Part shown: piece by piece, positions 5,158 through 39,536 of the stretch
How positions within the stretch are numbered: the stretch's first letter is position 1
How the letters are laid out: every line of letters begins with the position of its first letter
Virus genome (UHGV): UHGV-0007810
DNA length: 41,346 nt
DNA from: a virus
Reading direction: 5' to 3' (one strand)
The notes under the pieces: model-generated
The model's input: only the letters and a program-made list of their open reading frames with translations
What the model was told of the DNA's origin: nothing
The model's database searches: none
Made by a program: the position numbers and the translations under genes

Positions 5158-5172
5158 TTACCGTTGAGGTAA
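5158..5172. promoter_or_regulatory. Operator-like palindrome TTACCGTTGAGGTAA
   Basis: Exact TTACC-N5-GGTAA, 20 nt upstream of the first gene of the leftward early operon. Confidence 0.55.
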
Positions 5173-5219
5173 TAATTATGCGTATTTGGTTTGATGTCAA
5201 TAGATATGAGTTAAAAAAA

Positions 5220-5234
5220 TTACCCATTAGGTAA
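5220..5234. promoter_or_regulatory. Operator-like palindrome TTACCCATTAGGTAA
   Basis: Exact TTACC-N5-GGTAA in the promoter region of the leftward early operon. Confidence 0.55.
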
Positions 5235-5291: not shown

Positions 5292-5876
5292 TTATTGTTT
5301 GTTTTTTTCGTTCTGGTTGATGACAAATTCAATGTAACTTTCGATCTTTGCTTTCTCGGTTTCGGGTAACAATGCGTAGCGCGAGCGGTCATAGTTGATG
5401 GTCGCAGGGTCGTGCGGGTGAATCAGTAATTCATAGCCGTGACGCCCGAATGCGGATGCAACATTCTCCAGGGTGGAAATGGAAACGCTGACCTCATTGT
5501 TTAACAGGCGACTGATTGTCACCTGGGCGACGCCGGATGCGCGGTGAAGTTTTCCCTGCGTTGAAAGGTCGCGGCTTTCGCTCATCCAGCGTTCCAGGTT
5601 GTGAGCCGCCAGCTGACCAATGTCGCTTGGGCCGACAGGCTGAAAACCTTCCTGAGAAAGCGAGCGATCGATATCAAGCCAGTTACGGGGTTTATTGGCG
5701 GCAGCTTCAATTTTTCGTGCAACCTGGTCGCCGATAACCTTCTTGCCAAGAGCCCAGCGGTTTACCAGATTTGCCTGAGTTCCAAGTTTTTCTGCCATCC
5801 GCGTCTGAACACCATTGAATTCACGGTCGATCAAGTCGTTGAGATTTTGCCTGCGGACGTCCTGGATACTTTTCAT
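5292..5876 (-). CDS. CI-like phage repressor with two helix-turn-helix regions, no LexA-like peptidase domain
   Basis: 194 aa; HTH-like segments near the N-terminus (QTRMAEKLGTQANLVNRW) and the middle (ASGVAQVTISRLLNNE); divergent from the cro-like gene; no G-D-S-M / Ser-Lys cleavage-domain signature seen. Confidence 0.7.
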   Translation of the reverse strand: MKSIQDVRRQNLNDLIDREFNGVQTRMAEKLGTQANLVNRWALGKKVIGDQVARKIEAAANKPRNWLDIDRSLSQEGFQPVGPSDIGQLAAHNLERWMSESRDLSTQGKLHRASGVAQVTISRLLNNEVSVSISTLENVASAFGRHGYELLIHPHDPATINYDRSRYALLPETEKAKIESYIEFVINQNEKNKQ

Positions 5877-5931
5877 TTTCTGGAAAATCGCCTCATATAT
5901 GAATCAGTAGATGATTCAATTTAAAGCAATA

Positions 5932-5946
5932 TTACCCAACAGGTAA
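5932..5946. promoter_or_regulatory. Operator O1 in the repressor/cro intergenic region
   Basis: TTACCCAACAGGTAA, exact. Confidence 0.6.
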
Positions 5947-5948
5947 AT

Positions 5949-5963
5949 GCACCTCATAGGTAA
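5949..5963. promoter_or_regulatory. Operator O2 (variant) in the repressor/cro intergenic region
   Basis: GCACCTCATAGGTAA, one half-site mismatch; centre 17 bp from O1. Confidence 0.5.
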
Positions 5964-5979
5964 CTATCCTTGATTTTTG

Positions 5980-5994
5980 TTACCTTATGGGTGA
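5980..5994. promoter_or_regulatory. Operator O3 (variant) in the repressor/cro intergenic region
   Basis: TTACCTTATGGGTGA, one half-site mismatch; about 40 nt upstream of the cro-like start. Confidence 0.5.
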
Positions 5995-6030
5995 ATATTT
6001 ATTATCTGAAATAAATATCAGGCAATAGCT

Positions 6031-6261
6031 ATGAGCGATAACGGACATTTCGATTTCAAAAAGCACTGGCTTGCACTTACTCCGGATGAGCGTGAAGCCT
6101 TCGCACAGGAAGCCGGAACGACGAGTCACTATATCCAGACTCACTTAACAGGTAAGCGCAAAATGCCAGGTAAGGTATTGATGAATGGGCTTTTTAAAGC
6201 CTGTAAAACAAGACAATGGCTGCGCTCAAAAGCAGAACTGGCATACTTCTTCTACTCATGA
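6031..6261 (+). CDS. Cro-like HTH regulator
   Basis: 76 aa; HTH-like LTPDEREAFAQEAGTTSHYIQTHLTGKRK; divergent from the repressor across the triple-operator region. Confidence 0.6.
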   Translation: MSDNGHFDFKKHWLALTPDEREAFAQEAGTTSHYIQTHLTGKRKMPGKVLMNGLFKACKTRQWLRSKAELAYFFYS

Positions 6262-6283
6262 TATCCAGCCACAACCCTCTGTA

Positions 6284-6308
6284 GACCGCCATCCGGCGGT
6301 CTTTTCAT
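6284..6308 (+). terminator. Rho-independent terminator after the cro-like gene
   Basis: GACCGCC-ATCC-GGCGGTC followed by TTTTCAT. Confidence 0.6.
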
Positions 6309-6316
6309 ATCTATTC

Positions 6317-6331
6317 GTACCTCAAAGGTAA
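6317..6331. promoter_or_regulatory. Operator-like palindrome (variant) GTACCTCAAAGGTAA
   Basis: Just downstream of the post-cro terminator and upstream of the replication operon. Confidence 0.45.
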
Positions 6332-6411
6332 TAAAAAACCAAATCTGGTTGATCTTTTTTTTGTGTCAGCACAAAATGACCGTAATCCCAATACTAATAA
6401 CAGGGCTTACC

Positions 6412-8262: not shown

Positions 8263-8277
8263 TTACCTTCGAGGTAA
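8263..8277. promoter_or_regulatory. Operator-like palindrome TTACCTTCGAGGTAA
   Basis: Exact; upstream of a sigma70-like promoter (TTGATT-17-TTTAAT at about 8297-8325). Confidence 0.55.
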
Positions 8278-8324
8278 TAAAATATTCTAAAATCTATTGA
8301 TTTCGTGTCTTATGTGGTTTTTAA

Positions 8325-8339
8325 TTACCTAAGGGGTAA
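8325..8339. promoter_or_regulatory. Operator-like palindrome TTACCTAAGGGGTAA
   Basis: Exact; overlaps the putative -10 and ribosome-binding region 4 nt before the ATG at 8343. Confidence 0.55.
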
Positions 8340-8342
8340 ATC

Positions 8343-8687
8343 ATGAGAAAACAGATACAGGCTCTTGGTCGACTCAAAACAGGCCAGATGAACAAAACAG
8401 AATCTGCGTATTGCCAGCACCTTGAGCTGCGTAAACGTGCAGGAGAAATCGTCTGGTATCGATTTGAGGGTATCAAGTTGCGGTTAGCTGACAACACGTT
8501 CTATACGCCAGATTTTGCTGTGATGCTCGCCACCGGTGAGATGGAACTGCACGAAGTGAAAGGTTTCTGGACCGACGACGCCAGGGTGAAAACCAAAGTC
8601 ACCGCAGATCAGTATCCGTTCCGAATCATCGGGGTAACGGTTAAACCAAAGAAAGCAGGTGGTGGCTGGAACATCGAAGAGTTCTGA
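8343..8687 (+). CDS. DUF1064-like phage protein (possible nuclease/resolvase)
   Basis: 114 aa; YTPDF ... ELHEVKG ... YP signature as recalled for that family. Confidence 0.5.
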   Translation: MRKQIQALGRLKTGQMNKTESAYCQHLELRKRAGEIVWYRFEGIKLRLADNTFYTPDFAVMLATGEMELHEVKGFWTDDARVKTKVTADQYPFRIIGVTVKPKKAGGGWNIEEF

Positions 8688-11237: not shown

Positions 11238-11278
11238 GAGTAGATTATGCATGATGAATTTGATGTGTTTTGAATACT

Positions 11279-11305
11279 GCCGCCAACTATGGCGGCTTTA
11301 TTTTG
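11279..11305 (+). terminator. Rho-independent terminator before the packaging operon
   Basis: GCCGCC-AACTAT-GGCGGC followed by TTTATTTTG. Confidence 0.6.
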
Positions 11306-11315
11306 CATGGTACTA

Positions 11316-11330
11316 TTACCACAACGGTAA
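11316..11330. promoter_or_regulatory. Operator-like palindrome TTACCACAACGGTAA
   Basis: Exact; 20 nt upstream of the small terminase start, within an 11-bp direct repeat ACTATTACCAC x2. Confidence 0.55.
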
Positions 11331-11350
11331 CTATTACCACGGTGGTTACG

Positions 11351-11944
11351 ATGCCTGCTGAACCTAAAACCTATAAACGTAAATCAACGCAATTTAAGCC
11401 ACTAACAGCAATGCAGGAGGCTTATTGCCAGTCATACATCAAAACGCCTGAAAACCAGACTCAGGCAGCGATTAACGCAGGATTCTCCCCAAATACAGCG
11501 GCAGTTAAAGCCAGTGTCATGATGCGCGATGAACGCATTCAAAAACGGATTGCCGAGCTGATGGAAGAGCGCAACAAACGAATGCGTGTCAGTGCTGATT
11601 ACGTTCTCATGCGCCTGGTGGAGATCGACCAGATGGACGTGATTGATATCCTCAACGATGATGGGGGCCTTAAGCCAATCCGCGAGTGGCCGAAAATCTG
11701 GCGCACTACGCTTAGCGGCTTTGATCTGTCATCGACCATCATGAACATGAACGAGGATTCGATAGAGACAATCCTCAAAAAAATTAAATGGCCTGACAAG
11801 GTGAAGAACCTTGAGCTGATTGGTAAGCACGTCGATGTCAATGCATTCAAAGAACGCCTGGATGTTAATGTGAATGTGACAATTGCTGATCGCATAGCGG
11901 CAGCCAGGAAGAGACTGAAAGAACGTCAGGATGGCAATCAGTGA
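11351..11944 (+). CDS. Terminase small subunit
   Basis: About 197 aa from ATG 11351 (the ORF-track extension covers a terminator and operator); HTH-containing N-terminus (TAMQEAYCQSYIKTPENQTQAAINAGFS) typical of small terminases; precedes the large subunit. Confidence 0.7.
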   Translation: MPAEPKTYKRKSTQFKPLTAMQEAYCQSYIKTPENQTQAAINAGFSPNTAAVKASVMMRDERIQKRIAELMEERNKRMRVSADYVLMRLVEIDQMDVIDILNDDGGLKPIREWPKIWRTTLSGFDLSSTIMNMNEDSIETILKKIKWPDKVKNLELIGKHVDVNAFKERLDVNVNVTIADRIAAARKRLKERQDGNQ

Positions 11945-14076: not shown

Positions 14077-14153
14077 TGGCGTGGCATGCAGGATTCGAAC
14101 CTGCGACCAACCGCTTAGAAGGCGGTTGCTCTGTCCAACTGAGCTAATGCCAC
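14077..14153 (-). tRNA. tRNA-Arg (anticodon UCU)
   Basis: Reverse complement folds as a cloverleaf: acceptor GTGGCAT/ATGCCAC, D-stem GCTC/GAGC, anticodon stem ACCGC/GCGGT with loop CTTCTAA (anticodon TCT), T-arm GCAGG-TTCGAAT-CCTGC, discriminator G and CCA. Confidence 0.9.
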
Positions 14154-14475: not shown

Positions 14476-14490
14476 TTACCTGAAAGGTAA
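14476..14490. promoter_or_regulatory. Operator-like palindrome TTACCTGAAAGGTAA
   Basis: Exact; about 90 nt upstream of the small ORF that precedes the portal gene. Confidence 0.55.
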
Positions 14491-32098: not shown

Positions 32099-32113
32099 TT
32101 ACCCTTGAGGTAA
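32099..32113. promoter_or_regulatory. Operator-like palindrome TTACCCTTGAGGTAA
   Basis: Exact; in the promoter region of the leftward small-ORF / YafO-like unit. Confidence 0.55.
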
Positions 32114-32185: not shown

Positions 32186-32881
32186 TCAGAAGAACCCTGC
32201 CTTGTCGTTGATGTACTCCGCGTGCGTCTGGATATCACGCAGGCATTTGCTCACACCGACGATGTAGCAGAACATGGTGGTCAGCTCCGCCGCCGCGCCC
32301 GATACGTCGTGCCCGTCGTCCTGTAACTGGTTCAGCAGATTCATCAGCAGTGAGTTCTCCGTCAGGCCGAGAACACCAGACGGCGAATGAATCAGGCTGC
32401 GGTAGCCGGGCTTCAGTGGGGCACTGTAGGTTTTGTTCTCTATCTTCATCGCCTGCATCACTGCTGATGCTGTGGCGTTGGCTACCTGGTCGGCAACCAT
32501 CTTTATGCGCTCTTCCTGCGGGAGCGAGTTTTTAATGTAACTTCCGGTGCGGCGGATCTGAGGAAGAACCTCACCTGTAACCCATTTACGAAAGCGGTAT
32601 GGGATAGTGCCTGGTGTCACTGCGTCGCGGCAGCGGAGGATCAGTGTGTAGAGGCCTGACTCGGAGATGATGATCGATTCTTGCTCACCGCCAGGGGTGT
32701 CGGTTGAAGCGACGCCCTTCTCATCATCATCAAGTTTTCGAACAGCATCTCGATGGTTTGCTATGCCTATAGCCCGACAAACATCTGAAGCGATAAACCA
32801 TGGCTCACCATTAATGACGATTACTCGTATATCGGCTTGGGATTCGAAAGAAAAAATGGACGTGCTTTTTGTAGCTGTCAT
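32186..32881 (-). CDS. Bro-N domain protein (antirepressor-like), C-terminal domain paralogous to 34029..34286
   Basis: 231 aa; N-terminal FESQADIRVIVINGEPWFIASDVCRAIGIANHRDAVRKL is a classic Bro-N signature; C-terminal ~70 aa align with the small LexA-box gene product. Confidence 0.75.
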   Translation of the reverse strand: MTATKSTSIFSFESQADIRVIVINGEPWFIASDVCRAIGIANHRDAVRKLDDDEKGVASTDTPGGEQESIIISESGLYTLILRCRDAVTPGTIPYRFRKWVTGEVLPQIRRTGSYIKNSLPQEERIKMVADQVANATASAVMQAMKIENKTYSAPLKPGYRSLIHSPSGVLGLTENSLLMNLLNQLQDDGHDVSGAAAELTTMFCYIVGVSKCLRDIQTHAEYINDKAGFF

Positions 32882-33150
32882 AGTGGTTACCTTTTAGTCA
32901 GGTTAATCACCACTACCGACGCCAATCGGTTGGTGGTGAACTGTGCAGGGTTGGCGTAACCGGCTAAAAGGACCCGGCGCACCTTTCGGTGCCCCCACAC
33001 AGCCCACCATAATACGAATGTGGCCGTGCTATACGCATAAAAAAACCGCTTGCGCGGTGAATGCGCCTTTTAGTAATCCGGGACGCCAATCCCGGCACTG
33101 GATTTTGCCAGTGCCCGATTACTATGGCACAAGAGGAGTGCAATGTAAAT

Positions 33151-33165
33151 TTACCGCAAAGGTAA
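33151..33165. promoter_or_regulatory. Operator-like palindrome TTACCGCAAAGGTAA
   Basis: Exact; in the divergent region between the Bro-N gene and the zinc-ribbon gene. Confidence 0.55.
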
Positions 33166-33243: not shown

Positions 33244-33258
33244 TTACCTTTAAGGTAA
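33244..33258. promoter_or_regulatory. Operator-like palindrome TTACCTTTAAGGTAA
   Basis: Exact; 20 nt upstream of the ATG at 33279. Confidence 0.55.
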
Positions 33259-33278: not shown

Positions 33279-34007
33279 ATGGAAGTTTTCTGGATAGTTG
33301 TTGGTGTTGTTACGGTGATTATTTACGTTATCAACCAGAACAGGACTAAGGTCTCTGATCGCACAGTCGTTAATCATCGCAAAACGATAAAGACCGAAGA
33401 TGGAGAAATAACGATTAATCGTACACAGGTGATAGACCACACCTCCACTCAGTTTCAAAAAACTGGAGGTAATGCGCCTAATATTTCCGCACCTCCTGCT
33501 TATGATAGTGCGGTAATCCAGACATATTATAAACAGCAGGAGTTAGCAAAAGAGAGGCAACTGATTCAGCCAAAGCCATTTACAGCAGAGCTTCCACCTG
33601 GAGTGTCAACGCGTCCGGCATATCATGGAAGATTCCCTGGTGATGACATATCGTCTCAGTCATCTAAAAAAGCACCTCAGGCAGTATCAGAGCCAGCAAG
33701 AATACCTTCTGTATCGCCGCCAAAAGAAGAATCAGCTAACAGAGTTTCAAGTGGTAGCAAGCAGTGCTTGCGATGCAGAATAAACCTTCCATATGAAAAA
33801 TTCAGGAAATCGTCAAAAAATCCAGATGGATTGACTAAGTGGTGTGCAAGGTGTCTCGATGGTCCAAAGAATACACGCCATATGAAGTGGTGCCCAATTT
33901 GTAATGTCCGCAGAAAACGAACCAGCTTTTACCCTAATAATCAAAATGCGGATGGCTTAATGGCATGGTGCAAAACGTGCTGGGACGAGCACAAAGCGAA
34001 ACGATAG
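33279..34007 (+). CDS. Membrane-anchored protein with tandem C-x2-C ... WC-x2-C zinc-ribbon-like repeats
   Basis: 242 aa; N-terminal TM helix (FWIVVGVVTVIIYVI), Pro/Ser-rich linker, two repeats CLRCR...DGLTKWCARC and CPICN...DGLMAWCKTC. Confidence 0.6.
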   Translation: MEVFWIVVGVVTVIIYVINQNRTKVSDRTVVNHRKTIKTEDGEITINRTQVIDHTSTQFQKTGGNAPNISAPPAYDSAVIQTYYKQQELAKERQLIQPKPFTAELPPGVSTRPAYHGRFPGDDISSQSSKKAPQAVSEPARIPSVSPPKEESANRVSSGSKQCLRCRINLPYEKFRKSSKNPDGLTKWCARCLDGPKNTRHMKWCPICNVRRKRTSFYPNNQNADGLMAWCKTCWDEHKAKR

Positions 34008-34030
34008 GCCGCTCTAGCGGCCTTTTCTTT
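34006..34030. terminator. Bidirectional terminator-like hairpin between convergent genes
   Basis: AGGCCGC-TCTA-GCGGCCT followed by TTTCTTT. Confidence 0.55.
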
Positions 34031-34286
34031 ATGTGGTTTGTTTTCGTAATTGTTCGGCACAATAGTCGAGATGTGTTTGCAAATCCTGCATAGACATCTG
34101 TGAGCTGGTGACGTAGTTAATCAGTGCAGTCAGTTCGGCAAGTGGGCCATCGACATTAAATCCATCCTTATCGAGATCCCGGAGTAATTTCATCAAGTGC
34201 GATCCCTCCACCAGTGACCTGACGCCTCCCGGCGTGTGAATCCTTTCGGTAAATCCGTCTTCCAGTGGATAGTGATACTGCTGCAT
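34029..34286 (-). CDS. Small protein behind a LexA box (candidate SOS-induced antirepressor)
   Basis: About 85 aa from ATG 34286 (GGAG 8 nt upstream); homologous to the Bro-N protein C-terminus; consensus LexA box 22-37 nt upstream of the start. Confidence 0.6.
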   Translation of the reverse strand: MQQYHYPLEDGFTERIHTPGGVRSLVEGSHLMKLLRDLDKDGFNVDGPLAELTALINYVTSSQMSMQDLQTHLDYCAEQLRKQTT

Positions 34287-34307
34287 CTTATCTTCTCCAT
34301 GCAATAA

Positions 34308-34323
34308 CTGTATATTTATACAG
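34308..34323. promoter_or_regulatory. LexA (SOS) box
   Basis: CTGTATATTTATACAG with flanks AA...TA; matches CTGT-N8-ACAG and the consensus TACTGTATATATATACAGTA at 18 of 20 positions. Confidence 0.7.
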
Positions 34324-34362
34324 TATCAAATAATTTGTTTGCTATCCAGCACGTTTTGCAAA

Positions 34363-34377
34363 TTACCCGAAAGGTAA
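34363..34377. promoter_or_regulatory. Operator-like palindrome TTACCCGAAAGGTAA
   Basis: Exact; between the LexA-box promoter and the tail-fibre gene. Confidence 0.55.
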
Positions 34378-34481
34378 TATCTGTTCATATTCACAGTCTT
34401 TCTATCCATATGTGGTTTTTCAGGTAATAGAATAACCAGATATGCGGCGCAACGGGTGCTGCGACTATCTGGAGATTTAAC

Positions 34482-37109
34482 ATGACGGTCTCAACCGAAG
34501 TTGACCACAACGAATACACAGGTAACGGCGTTACGACATCATTTCCGTATACCTTCCGTATTTTCAAAAAATCCGACCTGGTTGTTCAGGTGTCTGACCT
34601 TAACGGTAACGTAACAGAACTAGTGCTGGATGCTGGTTATACAGTAACAGGGGCGGGAACTTATAGTGGCGGTGCAGTGGTTCTTCCGTCGCCGCTTGCT
34701 GCTGGCTGGCGAATCACGATAGAGCGTGTGCTTGATGTGGTGCAGGAGACTGATCTTCGCAATCAGGGAAAATTTTTCCCCGAAGTTCATGAAGATGCAT
34801 TTGACTACCTGACGATGCTGATCCAGCGATGTTTTGGGTGGTTCAGACGTGCATTGATGAAACCATCTTTGCTTGCAAAATATTACGATGCAAAGCAAAA
34901 CAGAATTTCCAATTTGGCCGATCCGAAGAACTCTCAGGATGCTGTAACAAAAAAATATGTGCAAGACTTATATAGTGGGGTAGTTAGGCCTGATAACATC
35001 GACAACGCAATGTATGTTACAGATCTCGCTAATGGCAAATATGACAGCTCTCGCTTGGACATGTCTGTCGGGTATGAGATAAAAACCATTTCAAACTTTG
35101 TCAGGATTAATGGGGCTGTTTATCGTGTTACTCCTGCTGCAGTCGGCATAGTGACAGAAATAACCTCGCGTTACATTTTGGCCGGAGGGAAAAAAAGCTA
35201 CCTGTCTCATATTTCCAGGCATGTCAGTGGTACGCGTAGGCCGCTGAACTGGAAATTAGAATTCAGCATCATAGACGATGAGATTACCGCAGATCTTAAA
35301 GATCAGTATGGTTACACGACCATGGGATTTCAGGGGATTTACATAGACAGCAATGATGGAATGGTATACATCGGCTGGCAGACGCTAGACCCCGCATCGG
35401 TATGGGTTACGGTGCATGACTGGGTAACAGGAGCATTGGTAACACGTCTTCATTTTCCGAATAACGTTGGTGCACCAGAAGGCATCCACGTTTACCGAGT
35501 GGCAGGACAGCGTTACATCCTGCTGCCGTACAGCCCATCTCGCACTATCAGAATTTACCCTATCGAAGATCCGCGTACGCTGGTTGATAAAACGCAGATT
35601 ACAAACTTCACTGAATCAACACGCCTTGGAGTGCGATATCAGTTTAGTGGCTTTGGTAATACCCTGATATACGAAAATGCGGATATGGGTTGGCCGAAAA
35701 TTTTTGATGTTGAGACAGGTGTATCCAATATCTTTAACACACTGGATATTAACAGCCTTATAGAAGGATCTTACAGTCCAATGGGGACTATTACGGTTGA
35801 TGCAAATGTTGGAGGTCGCGGAGCCGGTAAACCAAAACGGCAGGGTGTCGCTCTTGGTTCTCAACGGATATTTGCTGGTATTGGTGCATCTACCACGGCG
35901 GGATCTGGAAATACTTTCGCAGGGTTGCAGGGTTATATTGAGTACAGCCTTAATGGTTCAGAATTAGGTCAGTACCTGCTGTCACCTGCAGATTTCAAAA
36001 CATACTGGGATAGTTATTCAGGGAAGAGTGTTTACTCCACTGAAAATGAGGGGGTGCAGTCTTGTGATATTTCTGGCTCTGAGGAATTGTATCTTCTACA
36101 GTCTATTCGCTATGACAATGGGGGCGGATCAAATTATAGGACTTTAAACATCATTCGCGCTAACTGTCCATCTAATGAACCTGGAACAGTAGACATGACT
36201 CCGCTATCCAATGCCTCATCACAGTTATTTAACCCTCGCGGAAGGGTGATTAACGCTGGCCGTCACCCTGTAAACCCGGCTGATGGTATTGCGCTATTTA
36301 CATCGGCACAGGCTATTTGTGACTATTTGCGGAATACAGATGCAGGTAGATATGTGACATATCTTGAACAGGATATGCCACTGTTTGAAGGTGGGCCATC
36401 TGCGCCAGGACAGATGACGCTGCCAGCATTCTGCCTATTGCAGATCGACTTCATCAACGGCGATACCTGGGAAATTACAGTTAATGGAACTAACAGGGCT
36501 AATAATTATACAGGAAGGATTTCCAAAAACGGCGGGTACAACTCTTTTACTAAGGTGTCCTCCCGCAGCATGTCGATTCTCGGATCCCCTGGTCTGGTTG
36601 ATGTATCAATTCGCTCACCTAACTCACTAAATCTTCCAGAATTTGCTGGAGACTGGTCTACTGGTGTAAGTATAGGAGCTGCAGGTGGGGTGACAAACTG
36701 GCAGCCAGAAGGAACAGGTAACGGAGCATTATGGGAGTCAGGATATGCAAAAAACCGTGTGTTGCAGATATTCATGTCCACAACATCAAAGCTGTTCTTC
36801 CGCTACGCAGACGATGCTATTCGCGCAGGTAACACAGGCTGGGCTGAGGCATGGTCGTCGCTGAACACGACCGTCGATTCAAGTGGTTTCATCAAAAAAG
36901 CCTCTCCGGTTGTGAAGATTTTCTCAGACGGTAGTAGTGAAACAAATCGCGAATCAGATGGGGTAACCGTCACACGGCTGGCATTGGGTGAATATCTGAT
37001 TGAGGGTTGCGTAGGTCTGAATGCAGATGCTTCATGGGGGGGGATTGATGGTGGATTTGAAATACCGCAGGACCGAAACAAGCAGCCGCTCATCGGATTA
37101 TGTTGTTAA
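34482..37109 (+). CDS. Tail fibre / tailspike protein
   Basis: 875 aa; GGAG Shine-Dalgarno; N-terminal ~150 aa resemble the T7 gp17 virion-attachment domain as recalled (YTGNGVTTSFPYTF..., ISNLADPKNSQDAVTKKYVQ). Confidence 0.75.
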   Translation: MTVSTEVDHNEYTGNGVTTSFPYTFRIFKKSDLVVQVSDLNGNVTELVLDAGYTVTGAGTYSGGAVVLPSPLAAGWRITIERVLDVVQETDLRNQGKFFPEVHEDAFDYLTMLIQRCFGWFRRALMKPSLLAKYYDAKQNRISNLADPKNSQDAVTKKYVQDLYSGVVRPDNIDNAMYVTDLANGKYDSSRLDMSVGYEIKTISNFVRINGAVYRVTPAAVGIVTEITSRYILAGGKKSYLSHISRHVSGTRRPLNWKLEFSIIDDEITADLKDQYGYTTMGFQGIYIDSNDGMVYIGWQTLDPASVWVTVHDWVTGALVTRLHFPNNVGAPEGIHVYRVAGQRYILLPYSPSRTIRIYPIEDPRTLVDKTQITNFTESTRLGVRYQFSGFGNTLIYENADMGWPKIFDVETGVSNIFNTLDINSLIEGSYSPMGTITVDANVGGRGAGKPKRQGVALGSQRIFAGIGASTTAGSGNTFAGLQGYIEYSLNGSELGQYLLSPADFKTYWDSYSGKSVYSTENEGVQSCDISGSEELYLLQSIRYDNGGGSNYRTLNIIRANCPSNEPGTVDMTPLSNASSQLFNPRGRVINAGRHPVNPADGIALFTSAQAICDYLRNTDAGRYVTYLEQDMPLFEGGPSAPGQMTLPAFCLLQIDFINGDTWEITVNGTNRANNYTGRISKNGGYNSFTKVSSRSMSILGSPGLVDVSIRSPNSLNLPEFAGDWSTGVSIGAAGGVTNWQPEGTGNGALWESGYAKNRVLQIFMSTTSKLFFRYADDAIRAGNTGWAEAWSSLNTTVDSSGFIKKASPVVKIFSDGSSETNRESDGVTVTRLALGEYLIEGCVGLNADASWGGIDGGFEIPQDRNKQPLIGLCC
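37036..37043. repeat. G8 homopolymer near the tail-fibre 3' end
   Basis: Eight consecutive G, 66 nt before the tail-fibre stop, where a +1-frame ORF begins. Confidence 0.9.
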
Positions 37110-39381: not shown

Positions 39382-39536
39382 CATGGCATTTTTCATGGTA
39401 CTTATTTCCGGTGACGGTATATAAAACGGTACGAGAAAAATTCATCTTTGGAAAAATGTTATCACTCAATTGGTTATGGTATCCGTAAATAATTGAGTGG
39501 GAATGATTTTGATCCCTGCACTATGAATGAACAAAA

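Follow-up and report, generated by a model that had tools for sequence, protein, structure and literature searches.

The 41,346-nucleotide (nt) window analyzed here (UHGV virus genome UHGV-0007810) is a complete Escherichia coli prophage of the phiV10/epsilon15 type (genus Uetakevirus), and positions 5292-6261 are its immunity switch. In this region, the gene of a 194-amino-acid (aa) repressor, Rep (5292..5876, minus strand), and a cro-like gene (6031..6261, plus strand) are divergent, with 154 bp and three operators between them. We consider it highly probable that the switch is of the Rep/Ant type described for phage SPC32H, in which a tetrameric repressor bound to the palindrome TTACC-N5-GGTAA would be released by the antirepressor Ant upon the SOS response, without proteolysis. 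This assignment is based on the full-length homology of Rep to its SPC32H counterpart, the absence of an autocleavage module, a small ant gene beside the tailspike gene and a LexA site at ant. A preliminary description had already read the region as an immunity region, and its elements hold: a repressor with two HTH-like segments and no recognisable cleavage domain faces a Cro-like partner across three operators, and a terminator follows each gene. Rep is identical to phiV10 gp40 and to ORF21 of phage vB_EcoP_ZX5 (ZX5). The antirepressor route, i.e., Ant and the LexA box at 34306-34325, was not part of that description.

The 2.9 kb around the immunity region are 98.3% identical to phage phiV10 and 98–99% identical to several other E. 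coli phages. The gene order of the window agrees with those of phiV10, epsilon15, and SPC32H, and an att core (ATTGAGTGGGAATGATT) is present at 39492. Comparisons were made across nine genomes, i.e., the window, phiV10, epsilon15, SPC32H, Enterobacter phage Tyrion, Klebsiella phage BUCT711, and three prophages (Cronobacter, Serratia, and Enterobacter asburiae) obtained via distant Rep homologues.

The repressor Rep

Rep was identified as the prophage repressor from its Pfam matches, its homology to structures in the PDB and its identity to phiV10 gp40. Rep shares its complete sequence with phiV10 gp40 and ZX5 ORF21 (100% identity) and occurs unchanged in at least 12 sequenced E. coli phages. 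A scan of viral contigs recovered identical repressors only, on at least 80 contigs. In ZX5, overexpression of ORF21 abolished free phage and lowered the endolysin and holin transcripts by 99.97–99.99% (PMC9782041), and repression of lytic genes and maintenance of lysogeny are thus published for the identical protein.

Both helix-turn-helix (HTH)-like segments that had been noticed previously in Rep were recovered by Pfam, one as a Cro/YdaS-type HTH at residues 21-61 and the other through HTH_3, which matched two stretches, the best at 106-147 (E=1.2e-9). The latter residues also match the HTH_26 and LacI-type HTH profiles. In the AlphaFold (AF2) model of Rep (predicted local distance difference test score, pLDDT, of 82), an N-terminal HTH (helices in 4-59) is followed by a second, five-helix HTH fold (86-151) and a long C-terminal helix (172-193). 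The flexible linker at about residues 71-88 contains positions 74-78, which are disordered in the model (<50 pLDDT). The top PDB folds for this model are 5D50, the SPC32H Rep-Ant complex, and 5D4Z, which comprises residues 92-198 of SPC32H Rep. We thus place the domain boundaries at approximately 1-70 (DNA-binding HTH), 71-88 (linker), 89-155 (second HTH-fold domain), and 156-194 (C-terminal segment).

Rep is a full-length homologue of SPC32H Rep (5D50_A; 42% identity, E=4e-42, residues 1-190 aligned to 2-197), the identity being 53% for the DNA-binding domain and 51% for the Ant-binding C-terminus but only 33% for the dimerisation domain. SPC32H Rep has been described as being composed of the domains DBD, MDD, and CAD, the last of which tetramerises Rep and binds Ant (PMC9986798), and its tetramer has been described on palindromic sites, with a tetrameric Ant splitting the Rep tetramer into dimers (PMC9638917). 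By homology, the second HTH-fold domain of Rep is predicted to be the dimerisation domain, and the C-terminal segment would be a tetramerisation and Ant-binding helix. The earlier designation as a double-HTH repressor therefore stands for the two folds, but the second of them would be a dimerisation module and so not a DNA reader.

The recognition helix of the N-terminal domain spans residues 35-43 (ANLVNRWAL), with the core NLVNRW at 36-41. This core is invariant in five aligned phage repressors and nearly so, as NL[VI][NS]RW, in 120 database homologues, and such an invariant recognition helix fits the invariant operator. The most deviant helices (NLVSRW in Cronobacter, NLISRW in Serratia, and TLVNRW in E. 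asburiae) are still found together with TTACC-N5-GGTAA in the same layout. A check for covariation between helix and operator gave constant co-occurrence only, the helix being too little varied to show more.

Inactivation of the repressor

No Peptidase_S24 domain was detected in Rep by Pfam, even at E<=1, nor by PHROGs, NCBIfam, or a fold search of the model, in agreement with the earlier statement that the repressor lacks a recognisable cleavage domain. The sequence contains no Ala-Gly or Cys-Gly dipeptide, the type of scissile bond of such repressors, and no cysteine at all. Rep thus has neither the C-terminal S24 domain with a Ser-Lys dyad nor the cleavage site of autocleavable repressors of the LexA/lambda CI type.

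The ant gene (34029..34286, minus strand), located 28 kb from rep, encodes an 85-aa antirepressor with 88% identity to SPC32H Ant (PDB 5D50 chain E, E=1.3e-47) and is divergent from the tailspike gene, as is ant in SPC32H. Twenty bp upstream of its start codon lies a LexA box, AACTGTATATTTATACAGTA (34306..34325), which agrees with the consensus at 18 of 20 positions, is the sole such match in the window and is conserved in all six genomes aligned. Being near-consensus, it is predicted to be a LexA site at the ant promoter. SPC32H Rep reportedly remains uncleaved in the SOS response and its ant gene is said to be repressed by LexA, findings attributed to Kim & Ryu (J Virol 2013) and Kim et al. 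(PNAS 2016). A cleavage domain would not be needed in Rep because induction would run through the LexA-controlled antirepressor, and predictions of SOS inducibility for phiV10-type prophages should be based on the Ant/LexA-box module and not on a cleavable repressor. The identity of Ant to its SPC32H counterpart (88%) as opposed to that of Rep (42%) suggests that Ant may act across different repressor types.

A second LexA-like box (CTGT-N8-ACAG, 34381-34396) was observed between a Rep operator and the tailspike gene. It was not counted as part of the switch, as it is absent in phiV10, epsilon15, SPC32H, Tyrion, and BUCT711.

Operators, promoters, and terminators of the switch region

The three operators between rep and the cro-like gene, with centre spacings of 17 and 31 bp as previously reported, are O1 (TTACCCAACAGGTAA, 5932-5946, centre 5939), which has exact palindrome arms, O2 (GCACCTCATAGGTAA, 5949-5963, centre 5956), with two mismatches, and O3 (TTACCTTATGGGTGA, 5980-5994, centre 5987), with one mismatch. 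Their columns align exactly in five genomes, the weak half-site of O2 (GCACC/GGTGC) is present in all relatives, and spacings of 17 and 30–31 bp recur across the nine genomes.

O1 overlaps a candidate leftward promoter of rep (-35 TTTACC at 5947-5942, -10 TAAATT at 5923-5918), which was derived from conserved alignment columns; a consensus scan of the region found no rep promoter, and the conserved TAAATT/TTTACC pair is a weak candidate only. The centre of O2 would fall near -44 of this promoter, and the positions of O1 and O2 suggest that Rep might regulate its own gene. For the rightward promoter of the cro-like gene, one candidate -35 is TTGATT (5970-5975), which does not vary among the relatives, and the other is TTGTTA (5977-5982), which pairs with TATTAT (6000-6005) as -10. 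O3 would lie within the promoter core in either case.

Intrinsic terminators follow both genes, at 5271-5252 (minus strand) for rep and at 6283-6302 (plus strand) for the cro-like gene, each with an 8-bp stem containing 6 G-C pairs followed by a T run, and both are also annotated in phiV10. Each gene is thus terminator-bounded, in line with the earlier proposal of two single-gene transcription units. The rep terminator shields the leftward early operon from rep transcription.

The product of the cro-like gene, a 76-aa HTH protein, is a homologue of epsilon15 gp39 and phiV10 p41. It matched phrog_35 of the PHROGs, annotated as "transcriptional repressor" (E=5.6e-13), and no family of Pfam or NCBIfam. 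Its family is restricted to enterobacterial prophages and has a near-invariant HTH (AGTT.-YI-TH-T). The model (pLDDT 87) is a confident five-helix bundle of the lambda-repressor-like type, and its PDB neighbours are all of the lambda-repressor/434/P22 C2/YdaS type, with template modelling (TM) scores of 0.5–0.62, approximately 0.6 for the YdaS N-terminal domain and the P22 C2 and 434 DNA-binding domains; the E-values are non-significant (>=0.6), which makes for weak fold support. A single-domain HTH protein of 60–80 aa with such a fold is of the Cro type, and together with the PHROG match this makes the label "Cro-like" a fair one.

Operators across the prophage

The palindrome TTACC-N5-GGTAA occurs in 11 exact copies in the window, where 0.03 are expected, and in a count of all 5-N-5 palindromes it ranks first both in the window (the next best having 5 copies) and in eight relatives. 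All exact sites (11/11) lie outside real genes, as do several conserved sites with one mismatch. At least 15 operator copies are located outside the 154-bp region, at the starts of other transcription units.

Beyond the rep terminator, two operators (5158-5172 and 5220-5234, centres 62 bp apart) bracket a putative leftward promoter (-35 TTGACA at 5200-5195, -10 AATTAT at 5177-5172), which matches the sigma-70 consensus at 10 of 12 positions and would serve the p39-p38-exo-recT operon. This module (5158-5234) corresponds to OL/PL of lambda. A nearly identical second copy precedes the DUF1064 gene (8343-8687), with operators at 8263-8277 and 8325-8339, again 62 bp apart, which bracket a candidate promoter (TTGATT 8297-8302, TTTAAT 8320-8325). 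In this copy, about 19 bp separate the first operator from a TTGAyw -35, the spacer to the -10 is 17 bp long, and the -10 abuts the second operator. Operator pairs 61–63 bp apart are found at both bracketed promoters in 8 of the 9 genomes (61–62 bp at the DUF1064 position), and the operator layout as a whole recurs in the eight relatives.

Beyond the terminator of the cro-like gene, the operator GTACCTCAAAGGTAA (6317-6331), also found in phiV10, Tyrion, and BUCT711, is situated 17 bp upstream of a candidate promoter of the replication operon (TTGATC 6349-6354, CAAAAT 6372-6377). Further operators precede the late genes. Two tandem copies starting at 11316 and 11334 (11316..11348), 18 bp apart, lie between a terminator and the ATG of the small terminase gene (11351), another (14476..14490) is upstream of the gp3/portal operon, and a third location is the divergent region between ant and the tailspike gene (34363..34377); the equivalent epsilon15 sites of all three locations are annotated as repressor-binding. 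At accessory genes, motif matches were found at 32099, 33151-33165, and 33244-33258. A near-operator, TTACCTTAAAGGTAT (136-150), lies about 45 bp upstream of the integrase start and keeps the same single mismatch in phiV10, SPC32H, epsilon15, and Tyrion, and Rep may thus control int too. Two matches with one mismatch at 34595 and 37708 were discarded as chance occurrences, since they lie in coding sequence and have no counterpart in relatives.

In the annotation style of phiV10, the small terminase gene begins 81 nt before the ATG at 11351, and the additional stretch (11270-11350) spans both tandem operators. In epsilon15, the annotated gene begins only behind the equivalent operator, and the phiV10 start therefore appears to have been called too early.

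A second antirepressor and its RNAs

The window encodes another potential antirepressor, a 231-aa Bro-N/Ant-like fusion protein (32186..32881, minus strand), the C-terminus of which shows 40% identity to SPC32H Ant (E=8e-20). The fusion protein as a whole agrees to 99.6% with ZX5 ORF4, the overexpression of which lowered lysogeny approximately 1000-fold (PMC9782041), and it is split into two open reading frames (ORFs) in phiV10. Its control region (32929..33165, minus strand) comprises a C4 antisense RNA (33014-32929, Rfam, 77.7 bits with a threshold of 45), 48 nt before the start of the fusion gene, the small RNA IsrK (33114-33039, Rfam, 77.9 bits), a candidate promoter (TTTACA 33149-33144, CATAGT 33126-33121), and the Rep operator 33151-33165, which this promoter abuts. 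As in the immI region of P1/P7, C4 is found just upstream of the antirepressor gene and on the same strand, and by analogy the IsrK/C4/Bro-N-Ant arrangement resembles the c4-ant module of these phages.

Proposed mechanism

Based on these features, we propose that the N-terminal HTH of Rep would read TTACC-N5-GGTAA through the helix NLVNRW, that the second HTH-fold domain would dimerise the protein, and that the C-terminal helix would assemble dimers into tetramers. Since such a tetramer would contain two pairs of DNA-binding domains, each tetramer could hold two operators. Rep bound to O3 would block the cro promoter, while O1 and O2, over and just upstream of the weak rep promoter, might serve autoregulation. 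Both the leftward early promoter and that of the DUF1064 gene would be held in a clamp by their 62-bp operator pairs, and single or tandem operators at the replication, terminase, portal, tailspike, integrase, and accessory units would allow Rep to silence most of the prophage directly. Distances of 62 bp (six helical turns) and of 31 bp between O2 and O3 (three turns) would bring the paired sites to one face of the double helix, an arrangement that bridging by a tetramer would need. The terminators of rep and the cro-like gene would separate their transcripts from the downstream lytic operons, each of which would have its own operator-guarded start.

Upon DNA damage, LexA would leave the ant box, and the Ant produced would bind the C-terminal domain of Rep, break the tetramer, and free the DNA. 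The Bro-N/Ant fusion behind the IsrK/C4 leader and a Rep operator could constitute a further route, probably of the feed-forward type. Non-cleavage, the action of Ant, binding as a tetramer, and the repressor phenotype would carry over from the work on SPC32H and ZX5.

Alternative explanations

Several points weigh against the Rep/Ant-type switch as proposed. Since Rep and SPC32H Rep share no more than 42% identity (33% in the dimerisation domain), the oligomeric state of Rep and its recognition by Ant are extrapolated, and the operator sequence of SPC32H and the stoichiometry on DNA were taken from secondary descriptions. For the window itself, DNA binding by Rep, an uncleaved Rep, and the induction route are predictions. 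The candidate promoter of rep is both weak and ambiguous, and the sole perfect operator of the switch, O1, lies over it and not over the cro promoter, a placement that differs from what a simple lambda-like hierarchy predicts. Besides, no recognisable sigma-70 promoter was found alongside the terminase and portal operators, and the HTH of the Cro-like protein is also nearly invariant, so that it may share the Rep sites or compete for them. The last two points lend some weight to the view that the sites are mainly targets of the Cro-like protein, or of another phage or host factor, with Rep acting in the divergent region only, and a regulator of the lytic phase could indeed act at the many sites that accompany late and accessory genes. 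However, the recognition helix of Rep is equally invariant, Rep has been reported on palindromic sites (PMC9638917), the epsilon15 annotators attribute the sites to the repressor, and the sites bracket strong early promoters as repression requires. We therefore regard this view as unlikely, and shared use of the operators by Rep and Cro, by analogy with lambda, as likely.

How Rep reads DNA and how it is inactivated could also be explained differently. Both of its HTH domains might read DNA, the second recognising a different site that has escaped notice, and the canonical five-helix fold of this domain and the HTH_3, HTH_26, and LacI-type matches of residues 106-147 are what such a bipartite reader would show. 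Only one palindrome stands out in the nine genomes, however, and the second domain is the part least conserved with respect to SPC32H Rep while the operator is invariant; its SPC32H counterpart has moreover been described as a dimerisation domain (PMC9986798), which makes a second DNA reader very improbable. As for inactivation, related phages do respond to the SOS system, and the linker at about residues 71-88 of the model is flexible, as might be expected if Rep were of the LexA/lambda CI type and underwent RecA-stimulated self-cleavage via a divergent peptidase domain missed by profiles. Yet the fold search of the model was as negative as the profile searches, the scissile dipeptides are missing, and the two HTH-fold domains together with a helix of 35 residues take up the 194-residue protein, so that a peptidase domain of approximately 120 residues would not fit. 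The homologue in SPC32H is described as being inactivated through Ant instead (PMC9638917, PMC9986798), and self-cleavage of Rep is effectively excluded.

Comparison with other systems

The Rep-Ant switch of SPC32H and the one proposed here agree in gene order, in the full-length homology of Rep (42%), in an Ant that is 88% identical and encoded in the same place, in the LexA box at ant, and in the operator palindrome and its layout. They differ in the dimerisation domain, which is only 33% identical, in the Bro-N/Ant-like fusion behind the IsrK and C4 RNAs, none being annotated in the SPC32H record, and in the second LexA-like box, found in the window only. With phiV10 gp40 and ZX5 ORF21 the repressor is 100% identical, and the antirepressor of the window is 99.6% identical to ZX5 ORF4; both ZX5 proteins were tested by overexpression (PMC9782041), whereas the passages of the ZX5 paper covered here contain no mention of the small LexA-controlled Ant and no mapping of operators. 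In phiV10, unlike in the window, the Bro-N antirepressor is encoded in two ORFs. The repressor gp38 of epsilon15 (AY150271.2) is 42% identical to Rep, and ATTACC-N5-GGTAAT sites occur there in syntenic positions; the record labels seven as repressor-binding, whereas the three between the repressor gene and gp39 (33341, 33358, and 33388) are unannotated.

The divergent repressor and cro genes across three operators, and the second operator set beyond the repressor terminator at the leftward early promoter, are reminiscent of lambda CI/Cro, and by analogy cooperative binding to multiple sites is likely. In contrast to lambda, the Rep system has no S24 domain and would not involve cleavage, its tetramer would form, by homology, via a C-terminal helix, operators are also present at late and accessory units, and the perfect site lies over the rep promoter. 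A LexA-controlled antirepressor instead of repressor cleavage is a trait shared with 186 CI-Tum, Gifsy GfoR/GfoA, P22, and the c4-ant system of P1 immI, and a C4 antisense RNA ahead of an ant gene is shared with P1/P7 immI. The Ant of the window is unrelated in sequence to Tum, and unlike in these antirepressor-induced prophages, two antirepressors with different controls and one shared Ant-like domain are present. As for P1 C1 and mycobacteriophage L5 gp71, one repressor has many operators dispersed genome-wide; here they are symmetric palindromes at promoters, often in phased pairs, and not asymmetric stoperators inside transcription units.

Conservation of the operator code

The nine genomes, among which Rep identities fall as low as 41%, represent Escherichia, Salmonella, Enterobacter, Klebsiella, Cronobacter, and Serratia phages and prophages, and they have the 15-bp palindrome and the recognition helix in common. 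We tentatively put forward, as a possibility about which we remain rather doubtful, that Rep is a genome-wide silencer with an operator code frozen throughout the family. Cross-immunity at the DNA level would then be expected among all these phages, only the oligomerisation and Ant-binding parts would diversify, and the 62-bp pairs would form promoter micro-loops closed by single tetramers.

Rep, its function as repressor, and the inactivation route of its family are already published and not new. What may have been undescribed so far is confined to the frozen operator code and the genus-wide phasing of operator pairs; annotated sites of this kind are limited to the seven in the epsilon15 record, and a literature search that did not extend to the primary SPC32H papers found no published analysis of the operator layout. 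The gain in basic knowledge is thus small and the practical value lies in annotation, phiV10-type prophages being very common in E. coli. The operator map also offers ready targets for footprinting and for cross-immunity tests among Uetakeviruses.

Additional features

The sequence TATGTGGTT occurs in four exact copies (8311, 14534, 34030, and 34409) and once with one mismatch (37514). Of the copies, three precede the DUF1064, portal, and tailspike genes, each shortly before a GGTAA half-site or operator, and the tailspike copy is part of a block, CATATnnGGTT...GGTAATAGAAT, conserved in six genomes. This sequence may be a phage-specific promoter element.

A gene at 33279-34007 (plus strand) encodes a 242-aa protein assigned to phrog_6762, with repeated CxxC motifs and weak matches to endonuclease VII/Lar-like proteins. 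It has its own Rep operator (33244-33258) and terminator and no annotated phiV10 counterpart at this place, and it has the appearance of an accessory gene that was inserted and is controlled by the repressor. A tRNA gene was detected at 14080-14153 (minus strand; Rfam, 73 bits), in the interval that separates the terminase operon from the portal operon, and SPC32H carries a tRNA-Arg gene at the equivalent place.

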